The position numbers were made by a program, and so were the translations under genes. Positions 5,971-63,193 of a stretch of 64,000 bases of DNA are shown here, in pieces. This DNA comes from a virus (taxonomy: Duplodnaviria; Heunggongvirae; Uroviricota; Caudoviricetes). The DNA lies in IMG/VR virus record IMGVR_UViG_3300014205_000209, one strand, 5' to 3'. The notes beneath the pieces are model-generated. The model did no database searches, was not told where the DNA came from, and saw nothing but the letters and a program-made list of their open reading frames with translations. The number at the start of each line of letters is the position of its first letter. The stretch's first letter is position 1.

Positions 5971-6016
5971 AATATCCTTTGTTAGTTAAAATATCATAAA
6001 AAAATAATTAAATAGT

Positions 6017-6295
6017 TTATTTTTTTAATTTTAAATTATTTAATGAGATTATTGTTTCTTCTAATTCTAATTCTATCTCTTTTGATTTTTTCTTTATCAA
6101 ATTTAATTTATTCCGTTTTATTTTTATTAAATGTTGTATTGCCAAAAATTCTGAAGTAAAACTTTTTTCTTTTTTAACATACCAATAATCATTTGTGATT
6201 TGATTTAACGCATAATATTCAAACGTTAATTCTGTAATAACTTTCAAAGATACAATCTTATCATTTTTATTAAATGCAAAAATAGTATCAAACAT
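6017..6295 (-). CDS. hypothetical protein
   Basis: 92-aa ORF directly upstream of the sigma factor. Confidence 0.25.
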   Translation of the reverse strand: MFDTIFAFNKNDKIVSLKVITELTFEYYALNQITNDYWYVKKEKSFTSEFLAIQHLIKIKRNKLNLIKKKSKEIELELEETIISLNNLKLKK

Positions 6296-7157
6296 AAAAT
6301 CTATTATTTCTGATATACTCTAGAACCTTTATATCCAACGCATTTTGTAATAAGGTATTATCATCTTCTATCAAAGCTTTCCTTACCTCAGATGACGATA
6401 TTTCCATAATAGGACTTTCTTCACATAAATAAATATGCGGTGATTTTAAATACCATGATATTTTAGGATCAAAACTTATTCCTTTTCTTGGTACTACTAC
6501 AAATCTTATCATTTTTTCTAATAATTCATATTCTACCCATTTTTCAAAAGTATTAGCATTATCTAATCCTATTATTAAACTAAAATCATATTGATTCTTT
6601 GCAAAATCTTCTTCTAACAATTGCTTAACAAAATGATATGTTTGACCTGCAAATTTATTTTTTATCTCATAATCACATACTTTTATTCTTTTATCACATT
6701 CAACAGCTAATTTACACATATTTAATCTATCATCAGAACTAATCATTTTTTTTCCATACATATGTGAATAACATGGTAATAGCCATACCTCATCAAAGAT
6801 TTTGCTAGTGTTTAAAACAAATTGAGCTACTTGAATATGACCATTAGTTACAGGATCAAAAGCTCCACCAAGTATTGCTACTTTAATTTTTCTACCTAAT
6901 GATTTATATTGTTTCTCTCTATTTTTGATTTTCAACAATGTTGCATTAATACATTCTTCTGGTGTCCAATCATTTTCATTACATAATTGAATAGCAGAAC
7001 ACAAAAGATCACCTACTTCTTCTTTCATATTTTTAATATCGGTGTATCTTGCAAGTTCTAATGCTTCACCTAAAACATCATCTAATCTTTGTTTTAATGG
7101 TGTTCTACCAAATGCATTTAAAAATACTTCATTTATTTTATTTGAAACATCTTTCAT
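6288..7157 (-). CDS. fusion of a MazG-like NTP pyrophosphohydrolase with a nicotinamide/nicotinate mononucleotide adenylyltransferase (NMNAT)
   Basis: N-terminal EEVGDLLCSAIQLCNE is a MazG-type acidic helix. The C-terminal half has ILGGAFDPVTNGHIQVAQ, matching the (H/T)xGH nucleotidyltransferase motif of NadD/NMNAT. Confidence 0.6.
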   Translation of the reverse strand: MKDVSNKINEVFLNAFGRTPLKQRLDDVLGEALELARYTDIKNMKEEVGDLLCSAIQLCNENDWTPEECINATLLKIKNREKQYKSLGRKIKVAILGGAFDPVTNGHIQVAQFVLNTSKIFDEVWLLPCYSHMYGKKMISSDDRLNMCKLAVECDKRIKVCDYEIKNKFAGQTYHFVKQLLEEDFAKNQYDFSLIIGLDNANTFEKWVEYELLEKMIRFVVVPRKGISFDPKISWYLKSPHIYLCEESPIMEISSSEVRKALIEDDNTLLQNALDIKVLEYIRNNRFYV

Positions 7158-7333
7158 TTATTTTCCTTTGATAAACTATTTCCACATACTTGACATATAT
7201 TTTTTTCTTTAGCACATGCTGAACATTTTTCTTTTAATTGCATCGAATAAAAAGGAAATACTCCATGTTTTTTACAATAACCATCACCCATACAACTTTT
7301 AATCGGTTGTTTACATTCAGTACATAATACCAT
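7158..7333 (-). CDS. small Cys-rich zinc-ribbon protein (about 58 aa, below the ORF-track cutoff)
   Basis: Translating the minus strand by hand gives MVLCTECKQPIKSCMGDGYCKKHG...CSACAKEKNICQVCGN. Its ATG overlaps the upstream stop (ATGA). Confidence 0.35.
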
Positions 7334-7752
7334 TATTTACTCCAATAATTTTTTAAATCAACCATCTTACCACGATTACATTTTTGTGAATCCCACCAAA
7401 TTTCAAATTCTTGATGTGTAGGTAAACCATATGGAAAAATACGAAAAAAAGCATCTTTAAATGTAATCATCTCACCATTATAATTACAATATAAAATCCA
7501 CAAAATTCCCATAGCTTTTCCAGGATTTCCTTTAATAAAAAAATCCTCTAAAGCAACTATTAATATATTTGAAATTTTTAAATTTAATTCAAAAGATTTA
7601 TTTTTTGAAGAAATAATTTTGAAAATAGGATATTGCATTAGTTCTTGATCATCTTCAAAATATTTTTCATCAGTACAAAAAGATAATTTAATGAAAATAT
7701 CAGTTTGTTCTTTAGTCAATGGTTGACCTTTAAATTCAAATTTTGGTATCAT
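7333..7752 (-). CDS. hypothetical protein
   Basis: 139-aa ORF. Confidence 0.3.
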   Translation of the reverse strand: MIPKFEFKGQPLTKEQTDIFIKLSFCTDEKYFEDDQELMQYPIFKIISSKNKSFELNLKISNILIVALEDFFIKGNPGKAMGILWILYCNYNGEMITFKDAFFRIFPYGLPTHQEFEIWWDSQKCNRGKMVDLKNYWSK

Positions 7753-16893: not shown

Positions 16894-17841
16894 ATGAAAT
16901 ATGTCACATATTTAACAACTTACAAGGGAACTTTATTACCACCAAAATATATTGGTAGTACTTCTGAAGCTAATGCAAAATCTGGAATTTATTTTGGAAG
17001 TGTAGGTTCTAAAAAATGGAGTAAAATTTTTTGGTCAGAAATACAAAATAATGTACAATTATTTTCTTTAGAAATTATTTCATATCATGAAACACGAGAA
17101 GATGCTTTCATTGAAGAATTACGATTACAAAAACTTTATGATGTTGTAAATTCACCATATTATTTCAACGAAGCATATGCTTCAAAAAAATTCTTTTTGG
17201 GACATCCACATAGTGACGAAACAAAATTAAAAATTAAAACTTTACAAAAGAATTTTTCATTAGAAAAGAAAAACGAAATTTCACAAAAAATTTCAATAAA
17301 ATTGAAGGCAGCATGGAAAAAACCAGATGTAAGAAATAAAATGTCAAGAGCAAATTATTTAAAAAATATAGGAAGAAAACATACAGAAAAAAGTAAGCAA
17401 AATATGAGTAATGCACATTTTGGTTATAAACAATCAAAAGAGACAATAAAAAAAAGAAGTGAATCATTAAAAGGGCACAAAATGTCAGAAAAATGTAAAA
17501 AGGCAATTTTACAAGGTCGTTTGAATCATCCATTATCTGAAGAATCTAAAAAATTAATGTCTGAATCTGCAAAAAACAGAAAATTATCTACTGAAATTAG
17601 AAATGAAATGATACGCAAAATGCGTATAGCAAAACAAAAACCACGAAAGATTTTTGAATTAATTTCACCAGATAATTTTATATTAACATTTAATGGTTTA
17701 CAGGCAGTTAAAAATTTTGCTAATATACAAAACTTATCTTTTTCTGTTCTTAAAAACTGGATAAATAGAGGTAAAATTATACAAACATCTAAAAAATGGA
17801 TAGCAAATAAAAATTGGGAGTTATTAACACAACAACGGTAA
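16894..17841 (+). mobile_element. GIY-YIG homing endonuclease with tandem NUMOD3 DNA-binding repeats
   Basis: N-terminal YLTTYKGT...KYIGSTSE...GIYFGS (GIY-YIG). Repeated GHPHSDETKLKI / GRKHTEKSKQNMS / GHKMSEKCKKAI / NHPLSEESKKLMS units are NUMOD3-like. Plus-strand insertion. Confidence 0.65.
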
Positions 17842-20982: not shown

Positions 20983-22050
20983 ATGACTAGATCATCAAAA
21001 CACATACTTAAATTTCAAACTGAAGCTAAATCTTTTTGGTTAGATAAACTATTCTTTGACTACAAAATAGATCTTCAGTTCTACATTGATCTACTTTGGA
21101 ACAAACAATTACCAACTAAAAGAAATCTATCATCAAAAATTCTTCCATCAAATTTAATAGTACATTCTCAATATAAACAATTACTTTATAAACATGCCTC
21201 TGAAATAATTAGATCAAACATTAAAAAGAAAAATACATCTAAACCTTTAATCAAAGATATTTCTATAAATATAGATAATAGACTTTTTGATGTACAAAAA
21301 GATTCTATACACTTTAATGAATTCATACATCTAAGACTTCCTTACTTTCATAATGCCAAAAAGAGATCTTTGTTTATAAGACTACCTATCAAATATCACA
21401 AACAAAGTCTAATATATACTTCTTGGAATAAATCAAATTCTATCAAACTAAAGAAAATAAACAATAATTATTATGTCATCTTTACCTATGAAAAAGAAAC
21501 TACAAAAATTAAAGAAAAAGGTAAGATAATAGGTATTGATCAAGGATATAAGAAGTTGTTAGTGACATCTGATAATCAAATGATAGGAAAAGATTTAGAG
21601 TTATTGTATACAAAGATAAGCCATAAAAGACAAGGAAGTAAAGCTTTTAAAAGAGCTTTAGTTGAAAGAGATAATAGAATTAATTTCGAGTTAAAGAAAT
21701 TAGATTTTAAAAATATAAAAGAGATAGTTATAGAGGATTTGAAAGGTATAAAAAGTTGTAAGAAGGTATTTAGAAAGGTATTTAGGAATAAGTATCAGAG
21801 ATGGGTTTATAGGAAAACTTTAAATAGATTACAAGGACTTAGTGAGGAGAACGGTGTTCTTTTAACTAAAGTTAATCCTGCTTATACAAGTCAGGAATGT
21901 AGTCAATGTGGTTTTATACATCGTGATAATAGAGTTGGTGTGAGGTTTTGTTGTATAGAATGTGGATATGAGTTAGATGCAGATTATAATGCTTCTATTA
22001 ATATTTTGCATAGAGGAGTTTATAATCCCTCTACCAAAGTGAATTTTTAA
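20983..22050 (+). mobile_element. tnpB: TnpB (IS200/IS605-family OrfB) RNA-guided nuclease-like protein, second copy
   Basis: RuvC-I IIGIDQGYKKLLVTSD, RuvC-II VIEDLKGIK, and C-terminal zinc finger CSQCGF...CIECG with NASINIL. On the plus strand. Shares the upstream motif AATAGCTAAATTTCTA with the first copy. Confidence 0.7.
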
Positions 22051-25319: not shown

Positions 25320-25419
25320 CGTATCCGGGAGGAATCGAACCTCCAACCTACGAATTCTTCAATATTCCCGCAGAAATATTGGAGAAATCCGTTGCTCTAT
25401 CCAGTTGAGCTACGGATAC
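25320..25419 (-). tRNA. tRNA-like gene (Arg TCT-like) with a 26-nt insertion in the anticodon arm
   Basis: Canonical acceptor GTATCCG/CGGATAC, D-arm GCTC-AACTGGATA-GAGC and T-arm GGAGG-TTCGATT-CCTCC. The anticodon region is 43 nt instead of 17 and contains a 9-bp hairpin CAATATTTC-TGCG-GGAATATTG with a UNCG-type tetraloop. TTTCT occurs twice. Confidence 0.4.
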
Positions 25420-31311: not shown

Positions 31312-31386
31312 ATGCCTCTAGTTGGATTTGAACCAACGCTGAAAGATTTAGAGTCAATCACTTTAGGCCAGACTAAGTTATAGAGG
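31312..31386 (-). tRNA. tRNA-like gene with a CUCUAAA anticodon loop (CUA, amber-suppressor type) and a weak anticodon stem
   Basis: Good acceptor GCCTCTA/TAGAGGC, D-stem ACTT/AAGT and T-arm GTTGG-TTCAAAT-CCAAC. The 17-nt anticodon arm ATTGA-CTCTAAA-TCTTT has two U·U mismatches. Confidence 0.4.
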
Positions 31387-31429
31387 CAAAATAAATTATC
31401 AAATAAATTTTACACTATAGCTATTTTTA

Positions 31430-40167: not shown

Positions 40168-40251
40168 TGCTCCGAGCCGGAATTGAACCGGCATGAGGTT
40201 GCCCTCGAGGAATTTTAAGTTCCTAGTGTATTCCAATTTCACCATCGGAGC
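40168..40251 (-). tRNA. tRNA-Leu (anticodon TAA), class II
   Basis: Acceptor GCTCCGA/TCGGAGC, anticodon stem AGGAA/TTCCT with loop CTTAAAA, long variable arm with a GAGG-GCAA-CCTC hairpin, T-arm GCCGG-TTCAATT-CCGGC. Confidence 0.65.
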
Positions 40252-42088: not shown

Positions 42089-43429
42089 TCATTCTCTATC
42101 TCCTTTTGCATCTTTCATATTCATTACAGGTTTTACTCTCATTATGATTTCTGCAGTAGGTTCAATTGCTTCTTCTATCATTTTGGAATTTTTATATGCT
42201 TCAGGTGCTTCATCCAAAGTATTAAAACCAACTGATGTAGAATAAATGTCTTTCATTGAATCTTTAAATTTTTCTACATCAATAATTTGTTTAGCTTTTG
42301 CTCTACTATAAACCCTGCCTGCTCCGTGTGGTGCAGAATAATTCCATTCTGAATTGCTTTTACCTTTGCAAAATAATAATCCATCATGCATATTAAATGG
42401 AATTATCATTTCTTCACCAGTATAAGAACGGATTGCACCTTTTCTAACTATAAAATCTCTGAAATCTATAAAATTATGCACACAAGATATTCTTTTTAAA
42501 TCACTTCTGGATTTAATAGAACTATCTAGAACATCGCATATTATATCAGCTATATATTTCCTATTAACCTCTGCATATTTTTGAGCAAATATCATATCTG
42601 CCAAATAATGCATCGCATCTTCATCTTCAAGATAATCCATTACATTTTTAACATTATCAGTTCCTGCATCATTTCTTAATTTTCTTATTTCTGATTCTAT
42701 GTCTTTACCTGTGTATGTTTTTCTTATATTTTCTATTTCTGTTTTAATAGAAAAATCTTTTCCTTTTCTAACTATTTTAGTTGCATAATATTGCCAATAT
42801 TCACAAACACATTTACCAAAATTTCTAGAACCAGTATGTATAGTTAACCAAAAATGATTTTTTATATCATCTTTTCCAATTTCAATAAAATGATTACCGC
42901 CGCCTAAAGTGCCTATGCTGTTTATAATGCGTCTTTCATTTGCATTTATCTGTTTACATTTATTTTGGAACCATTTTTCTTCTCCTTCATAAATTTCAGG
43001 AGAATATGATGTATTAAATTTAACATTAAACGCATTTGTAAAATCTTTAGCAGTTTTTCTTACTTCATTCCAAGGAAAATCTTTTTTCAAATGAATTACT
43101 GCTTTATCATGCATATTTGATCCAAATGGTATTTTATCACGTATTATTTTATCTAATTCATCATATGACATTGATAATTTTTCACCTAAATCTTGCGATA
43201 ACATCCCACAACCAATATCTACACCTATGACATTAGGAATTATTTTTTGTGTCATAGGCATTGTGAAGCCAATTACAGCTCCTTTTCCCCAATGTGTATC
43301 TGGCATTATTGAAATAGGATTTGTAAATGCTGGATGATTTATGAATGATGTGATTTGACTAATACATGATTCTTCTACATTATCAATCATTACTTTAGCT
43401 GTTGTATATTTACCGGTCATTTCGAACAT
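42089..43429 (-). CDS. rtcB: RtcB-family RNA 3'-phosphate ligase
   Basis: VIGVDIGCGM, TLGGGNHFIEIG and APHGAGRVYSR are the hallmark metal-binding and GMP-His motifs of RtcB. 446 aa. Confidence 0.8.
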   Translation of the reverse strand: MFEMTGKYTTAKVMIDNVEESCISQITSFINHPAFTNPISIMPDTHWGKGAVIGFTMPMTQKIIPNVIGVDIGCGMLSQDLGEKLSMSYDELDKIIRDKIPFGSNMHDKAVIHLKKDFPWNEVRKTAKDFTNAFNVKFNTSYSPEIYEGEEKWFQNKCKQINANERRIINSIGTLGGGNHFIEIGKDDIKNHFWLTIHTGSRNFGKCVCEYWQYYATKIVRKGKDFSIKTEIENIRKTYTGKDIESEIRKLRNDAGTDNVKNVMDYLEDEDAMHYLADMIFAQKYAEVNRKYIADIICDVLDSSIKSRSDLKRISCVHNFIDFRDFIVRKGAIRSYTGEEMIIPFNMHDGLLFCKGKSNSEWNYSAPHGAGRVYSRAKAKQIIDVEKFKDSMKDIYSTSVGFNTLDEAPEAYKNSKMIEEAIEPTAEIIMRVKPVMNMKDAKGDRE

Positions 43430-43874: not shown

Positions 43875-44414
43875 TTATATTTCACTTCTACTATAACTGT
43901 TTTCTTCGCAAAAATCATCAAACATTTTAGTAAAAACAATTTGTTCATGAATTGATATTGATTTAGCTGATTGTATATTTTTATTTTCTTTAATAATATG
44001 TCTAAGGCCAGTTTTATAAATATCATACCATGTTAGTATTCTAATCTGATGAAATAATGTTAATATTTCAATTTCATCATACATAATTTGTCCGTAATAT
44101 GTTAAAATTTTTGGTTCGATATTTTTATCCAATACTAAAGTAACATATTCTGTTCTAGCATCAGAAGATAAACAATGTTCACAATTTGTAATTTTACAAT
44201 CAACTCTGTTGTATAAATTTTTTTGCCCATTTACTTCTGTTTTCTGCCAATGAATTTTTTTAGTTTCTATTCGATTAAGTATAAAAGAAAGTGTTATATT
44301 TACTGGAATTGGCTGTGTAATGGGTATAAATACACGTTTTATTTGTTGTGTTACTTTTCGTATTTCTGGTAGTATTTCCACATTACCATTCATAAAATCA
44401 AATTTGTATGACAT
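43875..44414 (-). CDS. hypothetical protein, paralog A of a tandem duplication
   Basis: Shares YKFDFMNGNVEI...KKIHWQKTEVNG...DCKI(T/I)NCEHCL...ARTEYV...NIEPKILTY...KMFDDFCEENSY..SEI with 44567..45142. Confidence 0.45.
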   Translation of the reverse strand: MSYKFDFMNGNVEILPEIRKVTQQIKRVFIPITQPIPVNITLSFILNRIETKKIHWQKTEVNGQKNLYNRVDCKITNCEHCLSSDARTEYVTLVLDKNIEPKILTYYGQIMYDEIEILTLFHQIRILTWYDIYKTGLRHIIKENKNIQSAKSISIHEQIVFTKMFDDFCEENSYSRSEI

Positions 44415-44566: not shown

Positions 44567-45142
44567 TTATATTTCACTTTTCCTATAACTGTTTTCTTTA
44601 CAAAAATCATCAAACATTTTAGCAAAATATTGTTTAGAAAGATTTGATTGATATAGTGTAGAATGTTCTGTTTTATTTTCTGCAATAACATAACTACGTC
44701 CAGTTTTATAAATATTATACCATGTTAACATTTCAATTTCATCATGTATAATTTGTCCGTGATATGTTAAAATTTTTGGTTCAATATTTTCATCGAATAT
44801 CAATGAAACATATTCAGTTCTAGCGTTAGAAGTTAAACAATGTTCGCAGTTTATAATTTTACAATCAATTTTATTATAATGATTCACTGAATTTATTTCT
44901 GCTTTTTGCCAATGAATTTTTTTGGCGCCTATTTGATTAAATATAAAAGAAAGTGTTATATATTTTACGTCATAATCATTTTTGTAATAAGGTACATACA
45001 CACGTTTTAATTGATTTTGTTGTGGTAATTTTGGTAACATTTGTGGATCAATTTCTACATTACCATTCATAAAATCAAATTTATATTTATACATAGTAGC
45101 GAGGAGGATATTTTTTAGGATGTTTTTGTTTGAACAATTCAT
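44567..45142 (-). CDS. hypothetical protein, paralog B of a tandem duplication
   Basis: Collinear similarity to 43875..44414 along its full length. The downstream flanks are also duplicated. Confidence 0.45.
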   Translation of the reverse strand: MNCSNKNILKNILLATMYKYKFDFMNGNVEIDPQMLPKLPQQNQLKRVYVPYYKNDYDVKYITLSFIFNQIGAKKIHWQKAEINSVNHYNKIDCKIINCEHCLTSNARTEYVSLIFDENIEPKILTYHGQIIHDEIEMLTWYNIYKTGRSYVIAENKTEHSTLYQSNLSKQYFAKMFDDFCKENSYRKSEI

Positions 45143-46429: not shown

Positions 46430-47527
46430 TCAATCAAAATCATTTTTGACAACCACTATACAAAGTATTATAGTTAAAATTAGAGTAATTACAAAAGTAA
46501 TAATAATAGCTTTAAATGTAGGTTCTACTGCAATATAATTAAAATCAGCAAATTGTTTCCTAACAAATTGATTTTTGACAGATTCTGCCACATAATCAAC
46601 TACTTTATTTATATCTAATGAATCCATTTCTTTGATTTTTCTAGCAACAGTTGTTTTTAATATTTGTACATCAGTCCATGATATTACTTTAGTCCATTTA
46701 ATTTTATTTTTTGATGTACCAATACAAACAATAAATTCATTTTTATTTCCACCTTTCCAAAACGATTCTTGTAACAATCCTGCTTCTAATGGTTGATTAT
46801 CAAAAATTAGAATAATCATATGAACTTGTTTCGTTGCACCATATAAAGCATTATATTTTTGTAATTTCTCGATTGCTTTAATATCATTAGTTCCCATAAT
46901 TGGAACAATACTATATTTATACAATTGATATTTTTTAATAGTTGCTGTATCTACTTCTCTGAAATTAAATACAGATCTAGATGATTGTACTTTATTTTCA
47001 TATGTATGTAATAAAATTAAAGGTTTAATATGTTCAAAAATACCATCAAAGGTAGTAAAATATGCATCACCATCATCCATATGATAATGTCTATGTAAAT
47101 CTTCAAATGATTTATTATTCCATAATTTACATAAATTGTAAAATTCTTGTTCTGAAATAAATTGTCTATTTCCTACATTATCTTCAATTTCATAATATTC
47201 AGGATGATAATCTCTATATGAACAATCATAATTTCTTGTACATGTTTTTGTACGTCCTTCAGAATCTTTACCACAATCATATGTTTCAGTACAAGTTTTA
47301 TTTATCCATTCATCCCAATCTTCATAATACGTTGCTTTAATAGCATATGAATTCAAATATTCTTTATCATTTGTTTGTGAAGATATTGAAATATATTTTC
47401 CTAAAGCAATCGCAAATAAAGGAATAAAAAAAATTATGAAATATTCTGCAACATGCATTTTGTGCTGAAATTTTAACACTAAAATGATGATAGCAATTAT
47501 TGGAATAATTAAACTAAACCAAATCAT
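46430..47527 (-). CDS. membrane protein with N- and C-terminal transmembrane segments and a Cys-rich middle (possible TPM-like partner of LemA)
   Basis: Hydrophobic helices at residues 1–40 and at the C-terminus. Sits directly downstream of the LemA-like gene. Confidence 0.3.
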   Translation of the reverse strand: MIWFSLIIPIIAIIILVLKFQHKMHVAEYFIIFFIPLFAIALGKYISISSQTNDKEYLNSYAIKATYYEDWDEWINKTCTETYDCGKDSEGRTKTCTRNYDCSYRDYHPEYYEIEDNVGNRQFISEQEFYNLCKLWNNKSFEDLHRHYHMDDGDAYFTTFDGIFEHIKPLILLHTYENKVQSSRSVFNFREVDTATIKKYQLYKYSIVPIMGTNDIKAIEKLQKYNALYGATKQVHMIILIFDNQPLEAGLLQESFWKGGNKNEFIVCIGTSKNKIKWTKVISWTDVQILKTTVARKIKEMDSLDINKVVDYVAESVKNQFVRKQFADFNYIAVEPTFKAIIITFVITLILTIILCIVVVKNDFD

Positions 47528-47537
47528 TTAGAATTCC

Positions 47538-48086
47538 TTATTTGAAAAGATCAACATCATCATCTTTACCAGTAGAAAAAGCTTTTTCAGTTTTAGTTGA
47601 TGTAACTATTTTAATTTCTACTTTTTGTATTCCTGATAAAAACCAACTACCAGGAAATTTACCTAACAAATTATTATGTTCTCTACTAATATCGATTAAT
47701 CGATTTTGAGCGATCATAAATTCTGCTCTATTAGATTCAATAGCATCACCTAGATCTTTATATAATTCTACAGAAAATTGTGGATTATGTTCTTTGATAA
47801 ATTTAAATAATGGAGATCCTTTTTCTTCACCTTCATATCTTTCGTTCATTATAGTTGCATAAACGTCTTTAAAATCTGCTTTATATTTATCTGAAATTTG
47901 TGCTTTTTGTGAAATTGTTTTCCAAGTTTTATCGTAAATATTTTCATTTGCTTTTTGTTGTGCTATTATTTGATTTCTTAAACCTACTTCATCATTTTTA
48001 TATGATATTCCTGTCATCACATAACCAAAAATTATAATTCCAAGCAAAAATAAAATTACCAACAATGCAATCAATCCTTTTTTCAT
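47538..48086 (-). CDS. LemA-family membrane protein
   Basis: N-terminal transmembrane helix, then RNQIIAQQKANENIYDKTWKTI...NERYEGEEKG and NRAEFMIAQNRLIDISREHNNLLGKFPGSWF, matching LemA-family organisation. Confidence 0.5.
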   Translation of the reverse strand: MKKGLIALLVILFLLGIIIFGYVMTGISYKNDEVGLRNQIIAQQKANENIYDKTWKTISQKAQISDKYKADFKDVYATIMNERYEGEEKGSPLFKFIKEHNPQFSVELYKDLGDAIESNRAEFMIAQNRLIDISREHNNLLGKFPGSWFLSGIQKVEIKIVTSTKTEKAFSTGKDDDVDLFK

Positions 48087-48107
48087 ACGAACTCCTTTTT
48101 AAGTTTT

Positions 48108-48665
48108 TTATTCAATTCCATCATTTACTAAATTTATAACTTCTAATTTATTTTCAATCACATATTTTCTATATTCGTCCCACCAATCAGGTTGTTTTAT
48201 TTTCCATTTAGCAAATCTAAATTTTGATGCTGCATAATAAGTTCTATAAGCTTTTATAGGATCTTCTTGACGAAATTGTACTGGCATCGCTTGAACAAAT
48301 GGTGTGATTTGAGCTAAACCAGCTTGTGGTAAATCAGGATAATTGATACATAAATGTTCAATTAAATCTTGAGTTTTATGTTTTTTTCTATATCTTATAG
48401 TATATTGTTCACATAATTCGAAAGCTAATATTGCCAACCATTTATAATTAGCAATATTAGTTCTAATCCAAACACAACATGGATGATTTTTATGAGTTAG
48501 TTTGTATAATTTAGGATTATCTGAATTTTCAGAATATGTTGAATGAGTAATATGATGAGCAGAACATAAAATTTGTGCATATTCCACAATCATTTTGCAA
48601 ACATGTTTGTTACAATGATCTTGAGCAATTTGTTTTTGATACTTTGATAAAATAAAAATATTCAT
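48108..48665 (-). CDS. hypothetical protein
   Basis: 185 aa with conserved-looking HCNKH...HH...H residues. Family not recognised. Confidence 0.3.
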   Translation of the reverse strand: MNIFILSKYQKQIAQDHCNKHVCKMIVEYAQILCSAHHITHSTYSENSDNPKLYKLTHKNHPCCVWIRTNIANYKWLAILAFELCEQYTIRYRKKHKTQDLIEHLCINYPDLPQAGLAQITPFVQAMPVQFRQEDPIKAYRTYYAASKFRFAKWKIKQPDWWDEYRKYVIENKLEVINLVNDGIE

Positions 48666-48700
48666 ATAATGTGAATATCAACTAAATATTAAATAAAAGC

Positions 48701-49570
48701 TTATCTAATAATAAGTTTTTCACTATAGCTATTATTTCCAATTTTAAAAGTTAATAAATAACGACCTTTTAAATTAATCAACATTGTATATTTAAAAAAA
48801 TCATTTTTAATTTGAAGTAAATTTGTACAATTTCTTCCATTTAAATCGAAAAGTTGAATTTTATTTACAAGATTATTTGATTGTAAATATAAGCTGCCAA
48901 ATGTTGGATTTGGATAAATATTAAAAGTTGTAGAATTTTTAGTAACTATTTTTTTCTCTATACTTGTATAACGAGTAATGAGGGTATCAATACAAACAGA
49001 TACGCCTGGAAAACTTGAATGAGTAACATTATTATTAGAATCTAAAAAGAATCCATCACTCCAATAAAAATTACATTTAAAATTATTTGGTAAAAAATAA
49101 TTATTAGTATCAGTATAAAAACCAATAAATTTTTTGTTAATAAGATATTGTAATGGAGATTCACAACCTGCATAATTAACGGATAATTTTACAAATTTAA
49201 GTGTGGAAAAATTAATACTTCCATTTATTGTAGAATCTATATGAACATAAACTGATTCTTCAGGTGTAAAATCCCCTCTAACTTTAAAAATTGTATCATA
49301 ATAACCTATAAATGCATTATCATACATATTAAATTTTTGCAAAATTCTTACAATTAATTCTTCTTGATAAGAAGTATCTACATAAACATCAACCAAATTA
49401 TTTCTTAAATAATAAGATGTTGTTACTTTTACAATACCTGGTTGAAGTTCTTCATAAACTTTAAAATTAGAATCAGCTGGTGTACAATCACAAGTAAATA
49501 CTTTTAAACAAAAAATTAGTATAAAACTAATAATGAATTTAAGTGTCATAATTTTCTCTCCTTCTTTCAA
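48701..49570 (-). CDS. secreted protein with a T9SS (type IX secretion) C-terminal sorting domain
   Basis: Signal-peptide/lipobox-like N-terminus (MTLKFIISFILIFCLKVFTC). C-terminus KIQLFDLNGRNCTNLLQIKNDFFKYTMLINLKGRYLLTFKIGNNSYSEKLIIR matches the Por-secretion CTD pattern. Confidence 0.5.
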   Translation of the reverse strand: MKEGEKIMTLKFIISFILIFCLKVFTCDCTPADSNFKVYEELQPGIVKVTTSYYLRNNLVDVYVDTSYQEELIVRILQKFNMYDNAFIGYYDTIFKVRGDFTPEESVYVHIDSTINGSINFSTLKFVKLSVNYAGCESPLQYLINKKFIGFYTDTNNYFLPNNFKCNFYWSDGFFLDSNNNVTHSSFPGVSVCIDTLITRYTSIEKKIVTKNSTTFNIYPNPTFGSLYLQSNNLVNKIQLFDLNGRNCTNLLQIKNDFFKYTMLINLKGRYLLTFKIGNNSYSEKLIIR

Positions 49571-49633
49571 ATAAACCTTATCAAGATGTCTAGAATCATT
49601 TCTAGAACATCTTGATAAAGTAAGTTATAGGTT

Positions 49634-51016
49634 TTATTTAGTCTTTGAAATGATTGGATCTACTACCACTTCTTTGATTTCTTTTTTCTTTCCTAAAAAT
49701 TCAGGAAGTTCCATTCCAGCTATCTTGAACAGATTTTCAAGAGGTGGAACTGAATTCATTAGTCCAGATATGAAATTTGGAGTTTGTGTACCAGAACCTG
49801 AATCCCAAACTGTAACATTGTCAATTTTGATACCTTTAACAGCTTCAACCTGTGTTTTTACCAGTTCAGGTAATTTGTCAACAATTAGTAACATTGCAGC
49901 TTTATTTGGATCGCCTCCGGCTGCACTAACAAGATTTTTAAATCCTTCAGCTTGTTTATCAAGAATTTCTTTTAAACCTTTAGCTTGAGCTTCCATTCTC
50001 AAGAAAATTGCATCAGCTTCACCTTTCGCTTCTCTACGTAATTTTTCAGCTTGTGCTTCTGCAGCTATTTCTATATTTGTTTTTGCAATTTCAGCTTTAA
50101 CAACTATATCTGCAGTTTGAGCTGCTCTTTCACGATCTGCTCTGGCAAGTTCAGCGATTTGTTCTGCTTTATACGTTTCTTCCTGAGCTTTTGCAATTGC
50201 AACTTTTTCAGCAGCTGTAGCAGCTCTATCAGCTTCTGCAGTTTTTTGTCTTAATTCAGATTTTGAATTTGCTATTTTAACATTTGCAGTATTTTCACCT
50301 TCAACCGCAATAGCATTAGCATCTGCAACTCTTACTCTTTGTTCTCTTAAAGCATCAGCTTGACCAATTTCACCAGACATTGTTTTTTGTGCAACATCAA
50401 TTTTAGCTTTATTCAATGCTTCTGCTGCCGCATTTTTTCCTAATGCTTCAATATATCCTGATTCATCACGAATATCAGTAATATTAACATTGATAAGAGT
50501 TAAACCAATTTTTTCAATTTCTGTTTCAACACTTAATTTAACATTTCTCAAAAATGTATCTCTATCAGCATTAATATCTTCAATAGACATTGTTGCAACG
50601 ACTTGACGCATTTGACCTGTAATAATTTCACAACATAATTTCTTTATTTGATCACTTGATAAACCTAACAAACGTTCTGCTGCATGTGCCATTATAGCTT
50701 CATTTGTTGATATACCAATTGTAAATGTTGATGGAACATTAACTCTAATTTGTTGTTTGCTTAGTGCACCATCCAATTTAATATCTATTTGAATTGGATT
50801 AAGATCCAAAAATTGATAATCTTGTAAAATTGGTAATATAAATGCTGAACCACCATGAATACATTTGGCAGCTTTATCTTTTCCAACACTTCCAAATACT
50901 ACTAATATTTTATCTGATGGACATCGTTTATATCTTTTCAAAATAACCATTAAAATCATGAAAAAGGCCAAAATTACAATAATGCCTGTAATTAACCAAA
51001 ATGAATTTAGTTCCAT
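49634..51016 (-). CDS. flotillin-like SPFH/band-7 protein (FloT/YuaG-like)
   Basis: N-terminal transmembrane helix, SPFH domain, then a long Ala/Glu-rich coiled-coil (EA repeats) typical of flotillins. 460 aa. Locally higher GC than its surroundings. Confidence 0.75.
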   Translation of the reverse strand: MELNSFWLITGIIVILAFFMILMVILKRYKRCPSDKILVVFGSVGKDKAAKCIHGGSAFILPILQDYQFLDLNPIQIDIKLDGALSKQQIRVNVPSTFTIGISTNEAIMAHAAERLLGLSSDQIKKLCCEIITGQMRQVVATMSIEDINADRDTFLRNVKLSVETEIEKIGLTLINVNITDIRDESGYIEALGKNAAAEALNKAKIDVAQKTMSGEIGQADALREQRVRVADANAIAVEGENTANVKIANSKSELRQKTAEADRAATAAEKVAIAKAQEETYKAEQIAELARADRERAAQTADIVVKAEIAKTNIEIAAEAQAEKLRREAKGEADAIFLRMEAQAKGLKEILDKQAEGFKNLVSAAGGDPNKAAMLLIVDKLPELVKTQVEAVKGIKIDNVTVWDSGSGTQTPNFISGLMNSVPPLENLFKIAGMELPEFLGKKKEIKEVVVDPIISKTK

Positions 51017-51073
51017 TAGAACTCCTTTAATTTAATTTGTTTTATAATCTTTCTATCATTTTTTTTATTTTAT

Positions 51074-51373
51074 CTAAACATTTTTCCTCCATCTTTTATA
51101 TTGCTTCATTTTTTGTTCTGCTATATAATATATCTCGGTAAATTTATTACATTTTAATTTTACTTTTGTATTACATTTATCTCTTTTAAGATATCTACCA
51201 CATTCATCATTTAACGTACATTTTTCATTATTACATCCACATGTATCATAATAGTAATTGTTAAATTTACTCATTAAATGTTCAATAATTAAAACAATAA
51301 AACCTCCACCAACTAAAACTAAAAAAGCAATATAAATTGTAGAAAAACAAAAATTAAAAATTTTAATTATCAT
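51074..51373 (-). CDS. small membrane protein with a Cys-rich tail
   Basis: Transmembrane helix followed by CGCNNEKC...CGRY...C. Confidence 0.3.
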   Translation of the reverse strand: MIIKIFNFCFSTIYIAFLVLVGGGFIVLIIEHLMSKFNNYYYDTCGCNNEKCTLNDECGRYLKRDKCNTKVKLKCNKFTEIYYIAEQKMKQYKRWRKNV

Positions 51374-52643
51374 TCTTATTTTCCCAAAATAAATCTAATG
51401 CTTTTTCACAACAAATATTCTGAAAACATGCCCCACTAATATCATTTTCTTGATCAATAAGATGTTCCCATAGTTTTTTATCAAACCCTTTAAATATTTT
51501 TTCAGCCATCCATTTACGACCATCTAAATTCAAACCTTTAAATTCTACTTTTCTATCAATTCTACCAGGTCTCAATAAAGCTTCATCAAGTTTAGATATA
51601 TTATTTGTAGTTATTATTAGAAATGTTCCATTACTTGTTTCTACTCCATCTATTTCATTAAGCAAACAATCAAAAGTTAATCCAGGTGAATTTTGTGTTG
51701 CTGTTAAATTTTTTCTACCATCAAATATAGTATCAATATCTTCTAATAATACAATTCTTCCATTAGAATTAGATTGCATTCTATAATGTTTAGTAAAATC
51801 GTGGTTATTCATTGATGCTAAATCAAATATGTATAATGGTAAACATAAATTTTGAGATATAGCAGCTGCTACTTTCGTTTTTCCTGTACCAGGTTGACCA
51901 TAAAATAAAAATCCGCGTTTCCATGGAATATTTCTATCAAGATACCATTGTTTTTTCTTTAACCAAGTTTCTGATTCATTTACTATATGTTTAATAGATT
52001 CATCTAACCACAAATTTTTTATTAATCTAGTTGATGGTTCTAATTCCAAATCTGATATATTTACTCCAATAGGCAATGCTGTTCTTACATTTTCTATTAT
52101 ATAAGCTGGAAAAGATGATTGATTATCATTTTTTATATTTCTTGATGATTCATTAACATTACCTGGCTGATTTGAATATTGTTTTTCACGATTTCCTTCT
52201 AATAAGATTATTACTGGATATTGTTTTGCGTTTAAATGTGCATCTATCGTTTGCAAATTAGCTAGTTTTAAAATATCATATAAATTTACAAATTTTGGTG
52301 CAATTATAGAAAATTTTTGAGGTGTAATACTAATAAAAGCAATTTTTTTTCTTAATATAGTTTTTTCTGAAAAAGATAAATATGATTCCCAAAAAACAAC
52401 TATACTTTCTTTATAACTTTTAGAATATTTCCACTCACAAAAAATATGTTTAAAATTGTTACTTACTGGTTTCCAATTATTTTTTTGTAAATATCTCATT
52501 AAATGAACAAATGAGGCTTCATCAAAAGAAAATCTATGAAAAAATAAACCTGAAAATTTAAACAAATATTCTTTTATAGTATTCCAACCGGCAACTATTG
52601 TTGCACCTATAGCACCTAATCCAATAGCACTTGTAGTAATCAT
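51363..52643 (-). CDS. BCS1-like AAA+ ATPase
   Basis: WKRGFLFYGQPGTGKTK (Walker A), IVLLEDIDTIF (Walker B), and LRPGRIDRKVEF (second region of homology with arginine finger), which is BCS1/ATAD-like. Confidence 0.65.
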   Translation of the reverse strand: MITTSAIGLGAIGATIVAGWNTIKEYLFKFSGLFFHRFSFDEASFVHLMRYLQKNNWKPVSNNFKHIFCEWKYSKSYKESIVVFWESYLSFSEKTILRKKIAFISITPQKFSIIAPKFVNLYDILKLANLQTIDAHLNAKQYPVIILLEGNREKQYSNQPGNVNESSRNIKNDNQSSFPAYIIENVRTALPIGVNISDLELEPSTRLIKNLWLDESIKHIVNESETWLKKKQWYLDRNIPWKRGFLFYGQPGTGKTKVAAAISQNLCLPLYIFDLASMNNHDFTKHYRMQSNSNGRIVLLEDIDTIFDGRKNLTATQNSPGLTFDCLLNEIDGVETSNGTFLIITTNNISKLDEALLRPGRIDRKVEFKGLNLDGRKWMAEKIFKGFDKKLWEHLIDQENDISGACFQNICCEKALDLFWENKNDN

Positions 52644-53161
52644 TTATTCTCTACTATTTCAAATGTATTAGTAGCTTTATCAAATTTACTAACTTTAACC
52701 TGCATACCAGTAGTAAAAATAATATTAGATTTATTTAGAGCATTAACATGCATTTTTTTTCCAGATATCATTACTATTATTTCACCAATAATATTCGGAG
52801 CAATAGAATAATATACTTCTGCTGTTTTACCAACAACTTCATCATAATTAAGTTTTGCTGCAATAGCTTGTTTATACATCATCCATAAAAACCATGCTAC
52901 TGAAAACATAACAAATAAGCCTAGTAAACTAGAAAATATCATTGAAAAAATTAAACTATGTCCATCTTTCAAAAATGCTAAAGATGACCAACCAAATATA
53001 GTCAAAAATGTAAATATATTTCTTATAGACAAAAGTTTGAAATCATGAGATGAATCATGATGATCAACATCAATATCATGCAAACCAACAAATGTTAAAA
53101 TAAAGAAAATTAAAAATACAATTGTTGAAAAAATAGACAAATACATTAAAACTTCTAACAT
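52640..53161 (-). CDS. NfeD-like membrane protein (YuaF-type partner of flotillin)
   Basis: Multiple N-terminal transmembrane helices and a C-terminal short beta-barrel (IGEIIVMISGKKMHVNA...MQVKVSKFD). Confidence 0.55.
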   Translation of the reverse strand: MLEVLMYLSIFSTIVFLIFFILTFVGLHDIDVDHHDSSHDFKLLSIRNIFTFLTIFGWSSLAFLKDGHSLIFSMIFSSLLGLFVMFSVAWFLWMMYKQAIAAKLNYDEVVGKTAEVYYSIAPNIIGEIIVMISGKKMHVNALNKSNIIFTTGMQVKVSKFDKATNTFEIVENK

Positions 53162-53928: not shown

Positions 53929-55053
53929 TCATAATTCATTTCTTTCACGTAAATAATCTTTAATAATTTCAATCAACTTTTCACTTACTAATTCATGATT
54001 AGGAACATGTCTTAAAGAACTAGTTTTATATAAGCTTGTCATTTTGGAATCCATATCATGAGCATACTGTTCTACTTTATCAAAACTCCATCCACCATTT
54101 CTAATATTTTTTAATTCATCTGCATCAATTCCTGTTCTATCAACATTAACAATTCCTGTTTCTAAAATTTCTGTTCCCATCCGCATTAAACGTGTAAGGT
54201 GCATTGCATGTTTTGTATCATAACCATATTTTTCTTCTGTTTCTGCACGTTTTTTGTTTCTTCCAGCTTTCCATGCTAAATATCTTTTCCATCCTTTCAA
54301 TGCCGCTGCATAACTCAATTCATTAATTGCCATTTCTTTATATTCTGGTTTAATGTATTCATTTCCAATAGATTTAATTGCATACAATTGTGAATCCAAT
54401 CCTTTTCTAAATAAATCCAATGCAATTTCTCTGTATTCTTCTTTCAAATTTTTCTTAATCAAAATTAAAACTTGATCACTATAAATAGCTTTCAAATCTT
54501 CAATCATATCTTGTTTTGTTAATGGATCAAAAAAATCATCAGCTAAATGAACAATTCCATCAAGTTGCGTTACTGGAAAAATTGGTGTTTCTGGAAGATT
54601 ATAATCTTTTCTATCAGGTTCTTTTTTTGGTGGATTCAACAAAAATGCTCTATGTAATTTGATTCGTTCCAATTGTGCAAATCCATATCCAGAAAAAGTA
54701 AATCTGGCTTTTTTAGAAACAAATTCACTTTTAAGTTCACGAATTCTTTCCCAATATGGTGTGATGTACTTAATACATCTATCAGCAGTAAAAAGAATAT
54801 CCATACAATTTGGATTATTATCTAAAATCAATCCTACAATTTTCCTTAAATCATAAATTGTTCTATCGTCTTGAACACCAGGAATTGCTTTGTAAACAAC
54901 TTGTTCGAATTTTCTATATCCTAAAAAATATTCAATAGTAGGCAAGCAAACTGCTACAGTATCCTCATCAGAATCAGGATTATTAGTACCATATGCTCTA
55001 GATCCTACAATTACATCAACAATTTTTCTCTGTTCAGCAACATTTGCATGCAT
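53929..55053 (-). CDS. Pol-beta superfamily nucleotidyltransferase
   Basis: IVGSRAYGTNNPDSDEDTVAV matches the hG[GS]x(9-13)Dx[DE] nucleotidyltransferase motif. 374 aa with a helical C-terminal domain. Confidence 0.5.
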   Translation of the reverse strand: MHANVAEQRKIVDVIVGSRAYGTNNPDSDEDTVAVCLPTIEYFLGYRKFEQVVYKAIPGVQDDRTIYDLRKIVGLILDNNPNCMDILFTADRCIKYITPYWERIRELKSEFVSKKARFTFSGYGFAQLERIKLHRAFLLNPPKKEPDRKDYNLPETPIFPVTQLDGIVHLADDFFDPLTKQDMIEDLKAIYSDQVLILIKKNLKEEYREIALDLFRKGLDSQLYAIKSIGNEYIKPEYKEMAINELSYAAALKGWKRYLAWKAGRNKKRAETEEKYGYDTKHAMHLTRLMRMGTEILETGIVNVDRTGIDADELKNIRNGGWSFDKVEQYAHDMDSKMTSLYKTSSLRHVPNHELVSEKLIEIIKDYLRERNEL

Positions 55054-55789: not shown

Positions 55790-56836
55790 TTAAAAAGTAT
55801 TAAGTTGTTCAGATAAATATTGACGACATTTAGCTGCAACTGAACTTGTAATATCTTTTGATGTAAATCCACTTGCTGCTAAAGTATCTATTTCTTCTTT
55901 TAAAATATCAGCCATTGTATTCTTAATAAATTCTCCCATTCCTTTCATTTCAATTCTTCCGCCATTTAATAGATCAAATGTTTTTGAACACATTTGTTCT
56001 AATCTCCACATGGGTGTAATCTTTTCTACTAACTCTTTTATATTGTTAATTCTTTCAACATCTACTGGTACTAAAGTTTTTACTTTTGTTGCGCTATGTT
56101 TATCGCCTTTAACTTTAAACCAAAAACCACTATTTTCATATCCTTTAGAAATACACTTCCAAACTATTCCTTCGCCGATTCCAATAACACCAAGTTGTTT
56201 TCCGACAGGACATTCTGCTTCTACAGCTAACATCATTTCTGCCAATTTGATTTGATATTCATGTGGCTTATTAAAATCTATGTCTAAATACCAATGTGGA
56301 AAATCAAAAATACATTTAATTTCAGGTTCATTAATGGTAGACATTATTTTGATGATTTTTTCTTTAGAAAGCCATGTTTTTTCGATCATTTCTTGATCAT
56401 TAATATTTGCATAAGCAATATTAAAAACAACAAACATTTTAGGCAACTCACTAATTGCCATACCTTTTTGAATACCTTTACCACACCATTCACCAAAAAT
56501 AACTACAGGATTATCTGGTAAATTAATAACATCAAAAAGTTTTTCAAAAACATTTTTTTTAGAATGTACAAACATAGCAAATCCAGCATTATCTTTAGCA
56601 GGATCAATAATATTTTCCCTACTTTGTACCCACATTTCATCATCTTCCATAACAACTGCAGAATTTGTTCCATGCAATTTTACAGTTCCTTCAAATGTCA
56701 AAACCGGACAATGTTTTGTATAATCATGAATAACATTATCATTTTCATCTTTTCCTTGATAACTTGTTTTATGTTTAACATTATGAACAACGCTTCTAAA
56801 TTGTTCAATATCAGGAAATGTTATTAATCTTTTCAT
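55790..56836 (-). CDS. ATP-dependent RNA ligase, Rnl2-like family
   Basis: Adenylation motif I EGTVKLHGTNSAV (KxHGTN as in T4 Rnl2) in a nucleotidyltransferase-domain protein of 348 aa. Confidence 0.55.
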   Translation of the reverse strand: MKRLITFPDIEQFRSVVHNVKHKTSYQGKDENDNVIHDYTKHCPVLTFEGTVKLHGTNSAVVMEDDEMWVQSRENIIDPAKDNAGFAMFVHSKKNVFEKLFDVINLPDNPVVIFGEWCGKGIQKGMAISELPKMFVVFNIAYANINDQEMIEKTWLSKEKIIKIMSTINEPEIKCIFDFPHWYLDIDFNKPHEYQIKLAEMMLAVEAECPVGKQLGVIGIGEGIVWKCISKGYENSGFWFKVKGDKHSATKVKTLVPVDVERINNIKELVEKITPMWRLEQMCSKTFDLLNGGRIEMKGMGEFIKNTMADILKEEIDTLAASGFTSKDITSSVAAKCRQYLSEQLNTF

Positions 56837-60350: not shown

Positions 60351-60450
60351 TAAGATATTATATGGGTGAATGATGGTATTCGAATCAATAACAATCTGAA
60401 TCACAATCAGGAATTCTAACAAATTGAACTACATTCACCATGTTTTTAAA

Positions 60451-61005: not shown

Positions 61006-61030
61006 ATTAGTAGTATTATAAATTAAAAAA

Positions 61031-61119
61031 CGGAGAGGATGGGAATTGAACCCACAGTTCTTTTTAAGGAACAACATTTTAGCAGAATGCCCCAGCAAAC
61101 CGATATCTGGCTCCTCTCC
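61031..61119 (-). tRNA. tRNA-Ser (anticodon GCT), class II
   Basis: Acceptor GGAGAGG/CCTCTCC, D-stem CCAG/CTGG, anticodon stem GCATT/AATGT with loop CTGCTAA, long variable arm with a GTTC/GAAC hairpin, T-arm GTGGG-TTCAATT-CCCAT. Confidence 0.7.
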
Positions 61120-61126
61120 AAATTTT

Positions 61127-63111: not shown

Positions 63112-63193
63112 TGGCTCCGAGCAGATTTGAACTGCCGACACCGAAATTTTCAGTTTCGTGCTCTACCTGTGCTTACGCCTGAGCTACAGAGCC
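63112..63193 (-). tRNA. tRNA-Phe (anticodon GAA) with an enlarged 17-nt D-loop
   Basis: Acceptor GGCTCTG/CGGAGCC (one G·U), D-stem GCTC/GAGC enclosing AGGCGTAAGCACAGGTA, anticodon stem CGAAA/TTTCG with loop CTGAAAA, T-arm GGCAG-TTCAAAT-CTGCT. Confidence 0.55.

Follow-up and report, generated by a model that had tools for sequence, protein, structure and literature searches.

We analyzed a 64-kb window of viral DNA (the whole of the stretch studied, from IMG/VR record IMGVR_UViG_3300014205_000209, Caudoviricetes) in which the genes for a short NfeD-like protein and a flotillin-family protein are separated by a BCS1-like AAA+ ATPase gene and a small orphan open reading frame (ORF). All of the parts belong to described families, and it is the arrangement, a split pair with an embedded BCS1-like ATPase, that is new. 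Two known modules were probably juxtaposed by a lineage-specific rearrangement, so that they would share a transcript by descent rather than as a conserved SPFH-AAA system. Positions are given in window numbering. The features concerned are listed here.

52640..53161, minus strand: short NfeD-like protein of 173 amino acids (aa), identified by its family profile and predicted fold
51363..52643, minus strand: BCS1-like AAA+ ATPase of 426 aa, with a Pfam AAA match and sequence and structure matches to Bcs1
51074..51373, minus strand: orphan ORF of 99 aa, Cys rich and with a transmembrane (TM) helix, starting 11 nucleotides (nt) within the ATPase gene
49634..51016, minus strand: flotillin-family SPFH protein of 460 aa, with a Pfam Band_7 match
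49575..49621, minus strand: stem-loop, a candidate intrinsic terminator found as an inverted repeat and by RNA folding
48701..49570, minus strand: secreted protein of 289 aa with a type IX secretion system (T9SS) tail (Por_Secre_tail, TIGR04183)

A sequence-only reading of the window had given coordinates for five ORFs, four of them in one minus-strand operon, and all five were found exactly as described, co-oriented on the minus strand and with the same ends. It had also described overlapping start and stop codons throughout the four-gene operon, which spans 3.5 kb. This holds for two of the three junctions. The nfeD stop overlaps the ATPase start by 4 nt (ATGA), and the ATPase stop overlaps the start of the 99-aa ORF by 11 nt. 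However, the 99-aa ORF and the flotillin gene do not overlap but are separated by a 57-nt gap, with an AAGGAG ribosome-binding site before the flotillin ATG. The nfeD and flotillin genes lie 1.6 kb apart with the two extra genes between them, on the same strand and in the same gene string. An independent Logan assembly of this phage also has these junctions. From this layout, we infer that the four genes are probably co-transcribed, with the transcript ending at the hairpin after the flotillin gene.

The flotillin assignment made by the sequence-only reading was upheld by Pfam. Band_7 (PF01145) matches residues 33 to 211 of the 460-aa protein with 90.3 bits against a cutoff of 23.6 (E = 2e-25). 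The protein has an N-terminal membrane anchor (hydropathy of 3.19 over residues 8 to 26), then the Band_7 domain, and then an Ala/Glu-rich coiled-coil region. It is 58 to 64% (about 62%) identical, over more than 90% of its length, to chromosomal entries named flotillin family protein from Marinifilum, Tenacibaculum, Prolixibacteraceae, and Bacteroidaceae. The NCBIfam FloT model (NF058507) matches with an E value of 4.9e-49, but the score of 167.7 bits is below the equivalog cutoff of 700. By its sequence, the window protein is a member of the flotillin family and not a FloT equivalog. In a rough neighbor-joining tree without support values, viral and bacterial flotillins were interleaved, and the window protein grouped with those of two metagenomic loci, L005 and L009.

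Markedly higher GC and Ala contents had been taken to suggest that the flotillin gene was acquired separately. The raw enrichment is there: the GC content is 0.326, with peaks of 0.36 to 0.37, against a window mean of 0.261, and 13% of the residues are alanine. However, the excess GC is confined to codon positions 1 and 2 (0.505 and 0.358) because the protein is Ala rich, and GC at the third position (GC3) is 0.115, whereas that of the neighboring genes is 0.08 to 0.16. Therefore, the composition shows no sign of recent separate acquisition, and the codon usage of the gene is fully ameliorated to that of the phage. No tRNA-like or other noncoding RNA was found adjoining the flotillin gene.

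The NfeD assignment was less direct. Neither Pfam NfeD (PF01957) nor any other Pfam model matches the 173-aa protein itself, even at an E value of ≤10, and so the earlier NfeD call fails at the level of a direct hidden Markov model threshold. What supports it are the family profile and the predicted fold. A word-based homologue search recovered only the query, and tblastn against GenBank phages found no match; the relatives, 1169 of them, came from an exhaustive phmmer search. PF01957 is matched by 16 of 62 aligned relatives (best E value, 8.9e-6), and the family profile matches the soluble domain of YuaF (2K14) at an E value of 6.3e-5 and 1510-C (3WWV) at 0.016. An AlphaFold2 (AF2) model (pLDDT of 92.4) has three N-terminal helices (residues 2 to 25, 46 to 65, and 70 to 103) with a His/Asp-rich loop, followed by a C-terminal OB-type beta domain with five strands within residues 113 to 171. 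The top four Foldseek matches to this model in the PDB are all NfeD proteins (template modeling [TM] score of ≤0.75 on the target), namely, YuaF (2K14), YbbJ in the SPFH-NfeD complex QmcA-YbbJ (8Z5G), PH1510-C (3WWV), and MTH693 (2K5H). The profile and the model identify the 173-aa protein as a divergent short-form NfeD.

The pair in the window consists of the same two proteins as the bacterial NfeD-flotillin operons (Bacillus subtilis yuaF-floT and Escherichia coli yqiJ-yqiK), in the same orientation and with NfeD first. Unlike these operons, it is phage borne and split by two genes, and its flotillin falls below the FloT equivalog cutoff and its NfeD below the Pfam NfeD threshold.

The 426-aa ATPase begins with a predicted hydrophobic helix (residues 3 to 31), which is followed by an alpha/beta domain (about 35 to 148), a disordered linker (161 to 183), and the AAA domain (about 215 to 425). 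The helix has a modest hydropathy (1.61 over residues 1 to 19) and lies in a Gly/Ala-rich segment. The Walker A (GQPGTGKT) and Walker B (LLEDID) motifs and the RPGRID arginines are invariant within the family. Pfam AAA (PF00004) matches with 72.7 bits against a cutoff of 21.2 (E = 5e-20), phrog_7485 matches at 6e-45, and yeast and mouse Bcs1 lead the sequence matches in the PDB (3.3e-30). After its own subfamily of uncultured-phage proteins (members P0002 to P0065, phrog_7485), the next database relatives are proteins that have both PF08740 (BCS1_N) and PF00004. No window protein matched BCS1_N as a single sequence, even at an E value of ≤10. The relationship appears to extend to the N-terminal domain when profiles and structures are compared. 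In hhalign, the full-length profile matches true BCS1 with 100% probability (E = 2.7e-60), and when the profile is cut to the N-terminal 200 residues, 126 columns align with the N region of proteins that have PF08740 (91% probability, E = 1.1e-6). The AF2 model (pLDDT of 84.9) has full-length Bcs1 chains as its top 11 Foldseek matches, with 392 to 456 aligned columns and TM scores of up to 0.58 to 0.63. By its sequence and model, the protein is BCS1-like. The earlier description of a BCS1-type ATPase stands: the AAA domain passes its Pfam threshold with intact motifs, and a BCS1-type N-terminal domain is supported at the level of profile and structure.

Like the BCS1 proteins of jumbo phages and mitochondrial Bcs1 (6SH3, 6UKO, and 8TP1), the window ATPase is predicted to have an N-terminal helix, a Bcs1-specific-like domain, and a single AAA domain. 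It differs from Bcs1 in that its N-terminal domain is too divergent for the Pfam model, and it belongs to a distinct uncultured-phage subfamily. The AAA half is matched by 244 GenBank phage records, and BCS1 orthologues have been described as widespread but scattered in jumbo phages, with a suggested role in membrane-proximal assembly (Iyer et al. 2021, PMC7824862, Viruses 13:63). The AAA domain is the only Pfam match above cutoff in the protein, which ends at the AAA lid (residue 426), and no protease domain was found. In the alignment, no canonical aromatic-hydrophobic-Gly pore loop is present between the Walker A and Walker B motifs, as is also the case in Bcs1. Therefore, it is unlikely that the ATPase is an unfoldase, and we regard that role as doubtful.

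We then compared the locus with others that have a similar flotillin. Bacteria were sampled as 80 genomes chosen by this flotillin type, with 8 kb scanned, and flanks of 8 to 10 kb were examined in all surveys. Scans of IMG/VR with the flotillin and the ATPase as single proteins found none, and alignment queries were used for the surveys. Of the bacterial loci, 76 had enough sequence upstream of flotillin to be judged, and in 74 of them an NfeD-like gene was its immediate upstream neighbor. Of the two exceptions, one is an artefact of the scoring, and the other is L272, a Marinilabiliaceae metagenome-assembled genome in which the NfeD-like gene is downstream of flotillin and on the opposite strand (5382-7477). 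IMG/VR contributed 26 flotillin loci, and an NfeD-like gene was directly upstream in all 22 that had upstream sequence. The flotillin and NfeD-like copies are identical in four of these loci (L101, L102, L103, and L108), which were counted once, and so the viral loci amount to 20 distinct ones. The pair is also adjacent, with no BCS1-like AAA gene, in phage csAssE-Sib and in metagenomic loci L009 and L010. No BCS1-like AAA gene was found within 8 kb of flotillin in any of the 80 bacterial genomes or at any of the 26 IMG/VR loci. NfeD-flotillin adjacency is near universal, and its disruption in the window is a real exception. This bears out the description of the pair as interrupted, against the direct adjacency of its two genes in 74 of 76 loci from bacteria and in all 20 distinct loci from viruses.

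The converse survey was done with the ATPase family. Flotillin and NfeD-like genes were absent from the fetched flanks of all 80 IMG/VR loci and all 80 metagenome loci. There was also none beside the closest homologue, P0002 (47% identity), or beside P0011, which is on a 509-kb contig; a 170-aa ORF upstream of the P0011 gene was considered as a possible NfeD but has no similarity to it. When neighbors within 4 kb were clustered over 91 loci, no family was common to more than 4 of them. Genes of this ATPase family thus stand alone in many large phages, without a conserved neighbor. About 5 kb downstream of the closest homologue (L003, 9317-10081) is a gene for an anti-Pycsar Apyc1-like protein with a metallo-beta-lactamase fold.

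Among the loci examined, the trio of ATPase, NfeD, and flotillin was present only in the window and in one syntenic relative, L005/L006, which comes from two further datasets. The gene order in L005 is RlaP, p78 (a slot also given as a homologue of the window's p92), ATPase, NfeD, and flotillin. Its RlaP matches that of the window with 756 bits, and its flotillin, NfeD-like, and ATPase proteins are 74, 42, and 44% identical to those of the window, respectively. Since the ATPase gene precedes an intact pair in L005, the ancestral order was most likely one with the ATPase just upstream of the NfeD-flotillin pair. The order in the window would then be derived, by a local rearrangement in which the orphan ORF was also acquired. 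The trio represents one juxtaposition event in one phage lineage. This gives no support to the idea, put forward in the sequence-only reading, of an SPFH scaffold with a dedicated AAA+ unfoldase: the ATPase has no flotillin or NfeD gene in the scanned flanks at 160 loci, the flotillin has no such ATPase gene nearby in 80 bacterial genomes, the ATPase has no canonical pore loop, and the trio is confined to one lineage and has a different order in its two representatives.

The juxtaposition that we favor can be described as follows. The first module is the short NfeD and flotillin pair, as found on the chromosomes of Bacteroidota and related phyla and in other large phages. Judging from their families, the flotillin would form an oligomeric SPFH dome on the inner membrane, on its cytoplasmic side, the NfeD partner would bind the flotillin via the OB domain, and together they might fence off a membrane patch and so stabilize or organize membrane proteins in the infected cell. 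The second module is the BCS1-like AAA+ ATPase, probably membrane anchored and of a family scattered through many large phages. It would act as a ring that, instead of threading its substrates, may handle proteins near the membrane that are folded or being assembled. In the ancestor of the window phage and L005, the ATPase gene would have been just upstream of the intact pair. In the window phage, a local rearrangement would then have inserted it, along with the TM/Cys-rich orphan as a new ORF, between the nfeD and flotillin genes, leaving the four genes on one putative transcript that ends at the hairpin.

Several observations weigh against this reading. The trio was kept adjacent despite the reshuffle and in phages that have diverged to 42 to 44% identity in NfeD and the ATPase. 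The reshuffle also appears to have kept the genes in one translationally coupled string, which would be expected under selection for co-expression. All four products are predicted membrane proteins. SPFH cages recurrently partner membrane AAA+ machines, as HflK/C does with FtsH and prohibitin with the m-AAA protease (PMC12624060). The survey counts have their limits too, because they cover only flanks of 8 to 10 kb, and at least 3 kb on each side was available for only 21 of the 80 metagenome ATPase loci. Finally, four viral loci (L113 to L116) have a second, unrelated AAA gene 0.5 to 2.2 kb downstream of a longer flotillin.

These last loci constitute a second, independent flotillin-AAA neighborhood in phages (L113, 12436-13677; L116, 14170-15360; also L114 and L115). 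Their flotillins are about 640 to 660 aa long, with an NfeD-like gene upstream, and their AAA proteins have an N-terminal AAA domain followed by a Cys-rich region with a weak zf-CRD match.

An alternative is that the four genes encode one machine, in which a flotillin/NfeD dome would enclose or recruit the BCS1-like ring, and the small Cys-rich protein would be an adaptor or a substrate. During infection, such a machine might, for example, serve virion assembly near the membrane, the translocation of proteins, or the upkeep of the membrane, as a viral compartment like those of HflK/C-FtsH and prohibitin/m-AAA. We consider this possible but doubtful. It would account for the translational coupling of nfeD, the ATPase gene, and the small ORF, for the operon that they share with flotillin, and for the retention of the trio in the divergent L005. 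The predicted membrane location of all of the products also fits, and the N-terminal helix of the ATPase resembles the Bcs1 anchor. SPFH-AAA partnerships are well documented, and SPFH-NfeD cages such as QmcA-YbbJ protrude into the cytoplasm, where an AAA ring would sit. However, there was a single juxtaposition event in a single lineage, the surveys found flotillin or NfeD near none of the 160 ATPase loci and the ATPase at none of the 80 bacterial and 26 viral flotillin loci, and the ATPase has no conserved neighbor anywhere among the loci surveyed. The small ORF is missing from L005. Furthermore, the flanking RlaP and p92 genes are equally conserved in synteny, and therefore the adjacency needs no special selection. 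In its most developed form, a phage-built membrane compartment in which a flotillin/NfeD dome surrounds a heptameric BCS1-like translocase and the small Cys-rich protein serves as an adaptor or as cargo, the idea seems to us unlikely. The nonproteolytic ATPase of such a compartment would perhaps handle folded proteins, for membrane-proximal virion assembly or for moving a folded phage protein across the inner membrane.

Two known systems can be compared with the idea of one machine. The window, like HflK/C-FtsH and prohibitin/m-AAA, combines an SPFH scaffold with a membrane-anchored AAA+ protein of the classical clade, an analogy that would apply if the genes are coupled. Functional coupling of the HflK/C-FtsH kind is possible. 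However, the window ATPase lacks a protease (M41) domain, its SPFH protein is a flotillin predicted to face the cytoplasm whereas HflK/C is periplasmic, and the association is limited to the window and L005/L006 instead of being conserved. The BCS1-like ATPase gene, likewise, adjoins a flotillin pair only in the window and L005 among the loci surveyed. The second system is that of the flotillin-associated rhodopsins (FArhodopsins), 93% of which are collocated with flotillin, the rhodopsin gene being immediately upstream and co-transcribed (Haro-Moreno et al. 2023, PMC10308929). These clusters set a precedent for genes of client membrane proteins joining flotillin operons, and this can be counted in favor of one machine. 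In contrast to the rhodopsin clusters, the association in the window is restricted to a single lineage, and the partner is an ATPase.

A conflict system was also considered, in the form of superinfection exclusion, anti-defence, or a phage-borne defence, with an IetA-like ATPase and a flotillin/NfeD pair that alters the membrane against incoming phages. This, too, starts from the ATPase, which is matched locally by the PADLOC models of IetA (2.9e-16, residues 204 to 273) and by the NCBIfam IteA_antiphage model (8.8e-12). The IetA ATPase of the IetAS system is likewise a classical-clade AAA protein of BCS1-like flavor. The setting could also suit a conflict role. The module is in a variable accessory region beside RtcB, RNA ligase, and RlaP genes, RNA repair of this kind counters tRNA-cleaving defences, and the closest homologue of the ATPase is about 5 kb from the Apyc1-like gene. 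However, the IetA matches are confined to about 70 residues around Walker A, with 44.8 bits against an NCBIfam cutoff of 510, and, over its full length, the protein matches BCS1 much better. IetAS consists of the IetA ATPase and an adjacent IetS serine protease, whereas the window has no IetS-type protease among the neighboring genes, and the gene is phage borne rather than in a defence island. The local IetA match was the sole PADLOC match, with none for flotillin, NfeD, the small ORF, or the other neighbors. Furthermore, the flotillin and NfeD proteins are of an ordinary housekeeping type, the flotillin being about 62% identical to chromosomal copies. We think a conflict role improbable.

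The 99-aa product of the orphan ORF has one TM helix (residues 12 to 30), a Lys/Arg-rich tail, and six cysteines (residues 45, 47, 52, 58, 67, and 75), and it was also called as a gene on the independent assembly. It has no match in Pfam, PHROG, PADLOC, or NCBIfam, and no homologue was found in 118 loci, L005 included. Small ORFs beside the ATPase gene in L003 and L005 were considered as possible kin, but they have no similarity to it. Directly after the flotillin stop codon, a hairpin with a 21-bp stem (-25.9 kcal/mol, z = -7.09, with none of 200 shuffled sequences folding as well) is followed by a U-rich tract (GGUUUAUUU). A consensus terminator scan, which requires G+C-rich stems, missed this A+T-rich hairpin, and it was folding that revealed it. 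It is a plausible candidate for an intrinsic terminator that ends the operon.

The sequence-only reading had noted a secreted protein with a T9SS sorting domain immediately downstream of the flotillin gene. The domain is above the cutoffs of both Pfam (Por_Secre_tail, 31 bits versus 27, E = 3.2e-7) and NCBIfam (TIGR04183, 39.4 bits versus 23, E = 4.5e-10), and the protein has a hydrophobic N-terminal segment. However, it does not appear to belong with the four genes. Because the hairpin and U-rich tract lie between, the gene with the T9SS tail is probably transcribed separately and not part of the module. It is not present in L005. The region downstream of flotillin (46430-49570, minus strand) encodes, besides the T9SS-tail protein, one protein of 182 aa with a single TM helix (phrog_1383, annotated as "virion structural protein") and another of 365 aa that has TM helices at its N and C termini (phrog_2087). 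This run of predicted envelope proteins is interrupted only by a soluble phrog_624 protein, and together with the module it makes up about 7 kb rich in membrane proteins. LemA was considered as an identity for the 182-aa protein, but Pfam gave no LemA match even at an E value of ≤10.

The sequence-only reading had also taken the window to be part of a phage-like element, and the wider context agrees. The window has a GC content of 26%, many small orphan ORFs, and nearly all of its genes on one strand. ARAGORN found 17 tRNA genes in it, and Rfam found 18. Neighbors on both sides of the module match PHROG families (RNA ligase, RlaP-type nucleotidyltransferase, RtcB, dCMP deaminase, phrog_624, phrog_1383, and phrog_2087). 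Because of the uniform strand, the tRNA set, and these neighbors, the region is the accessory part, with tRNA and RNA-repair genes, of a large 26% GC phage, and the T9SS sorting domain indicates a Bacteroidota host. A megablast search of the region from 46 to 56 kb against GenBank phages gave zero matches.

It is highly improbable that the region is instead a piece of a host chromosome or another mobile element, with an ordinary bacterial operon or an assembly chimera. What could suggest this is that no capsid, portal, or terminase gene was found within the 64-kb window, that there are two TnpB-like transposase ORFs, and that the flotillin is very similar to bacterial ones. However, the near-uniform strand, the at least 17 tRNA genes, the orphan ORFs, and the PHROG-matching neighbors all speak for a phage, as does a GC3 that stays at about 0.1 throughout the module and the sequence on either side. 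Also against a nonphage origin are the recovery of the junctions on the independent Logan assembly, the rearranged form in the two further datasets of L005/L006, and the absence of the arrangement from the 80 bacterial genomes that have this flotillin.

An RNA-repair set flanks the flotillin module, consisting of RtcB, an RlaP-type nucleotidyltransferase, and an RNA ligase (42089-43429, 53929-55053, and 55790-56836, all on the minus strand). The RNA-repair complement of L005 additionally has Thg1 and YqeY. Band-7 proteins adjoining RtcB in bacteria are credited to Burroughs & Aravind 2016 in a secondary source (10.1101/312249), and PaFlo8 of Pseudomonas aeruginosa is located in an rtc locus. 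A link between RNA repair and the module was examined and set aside: RlaP, RNA ligase, or RtcB genes are near the ATPase in 5 loci and near flotillin in 2 lineages, which is sporadic and insufficient.

Other features of the window lie further from the module. A tRNA with the anticodon CUA (31312-31388, minus strand), an amber suppressor labeled "tRNA-Pyl" by ARAGORN, prompted us to consider TAG recoding. TAG ends 5 of 79 long minus-strand ORFs (TAA ends 48 and TGA ends 26), and with TAG read as sense the ORFs gain only about 3 kb in total, which gives no clear sign of stop-codon recoding within the window. Three tRNAs were found by Rfam and missed by ARAGORN (25320-25419, 60365-60438, and 63112-63193, minus strand), and the first of these, at 100 nt, may hold an insertion or intron. 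Two others, Leu-UAA and Ser-GCU (40168-40251 and 61030-61120, minus strand), were found by ARAGORN only and are under the Rfam gathering score. Selfish elements in the phage genome include the transposase-like ORFs at 547-1797 and 20983-22050 (plus strand; phrog_506, phrog_12300, TnpB/OrfB-like) and a homing/HNH endonuclease ORF at 16894-17841 (plus strand). Two tandem ORFs (43875-44414 and 44567-45142, minus strand) encode paralogues of 179 and 191 aa that are 58% identical (E = 6e-69) and have a conserved core with a CxxC motif.

A phage-borne NfeD-flotillin pair is annotated in GenBank for csAssE-Sib, and a flotillin alone is annotated in Vibrio phage KIT04. We found no analysis of phage-borne NfeD-flotillin pairs in the searchable literature; one paper mentions a phage-encoded SPFH lipoprotein, whose role it describes as unclear. 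The 26 IMG/VR contigs and csAssE-Sib show that large phages infecting Bacteroidota and related hosts repeatedly carry the short-NfeD/flotillin pair. This cargo hints that these phages manipulate the membrane organization of the host. If the ATPase and the pair are merely neighbors, then the value of the arrangement is descriptive. However, if they are coupled, they would be the first viral SPFH-AAA+ assembly, and they would provide a function and a partner for the widespread, uncharacterized BCS1-like ATPases of phages.

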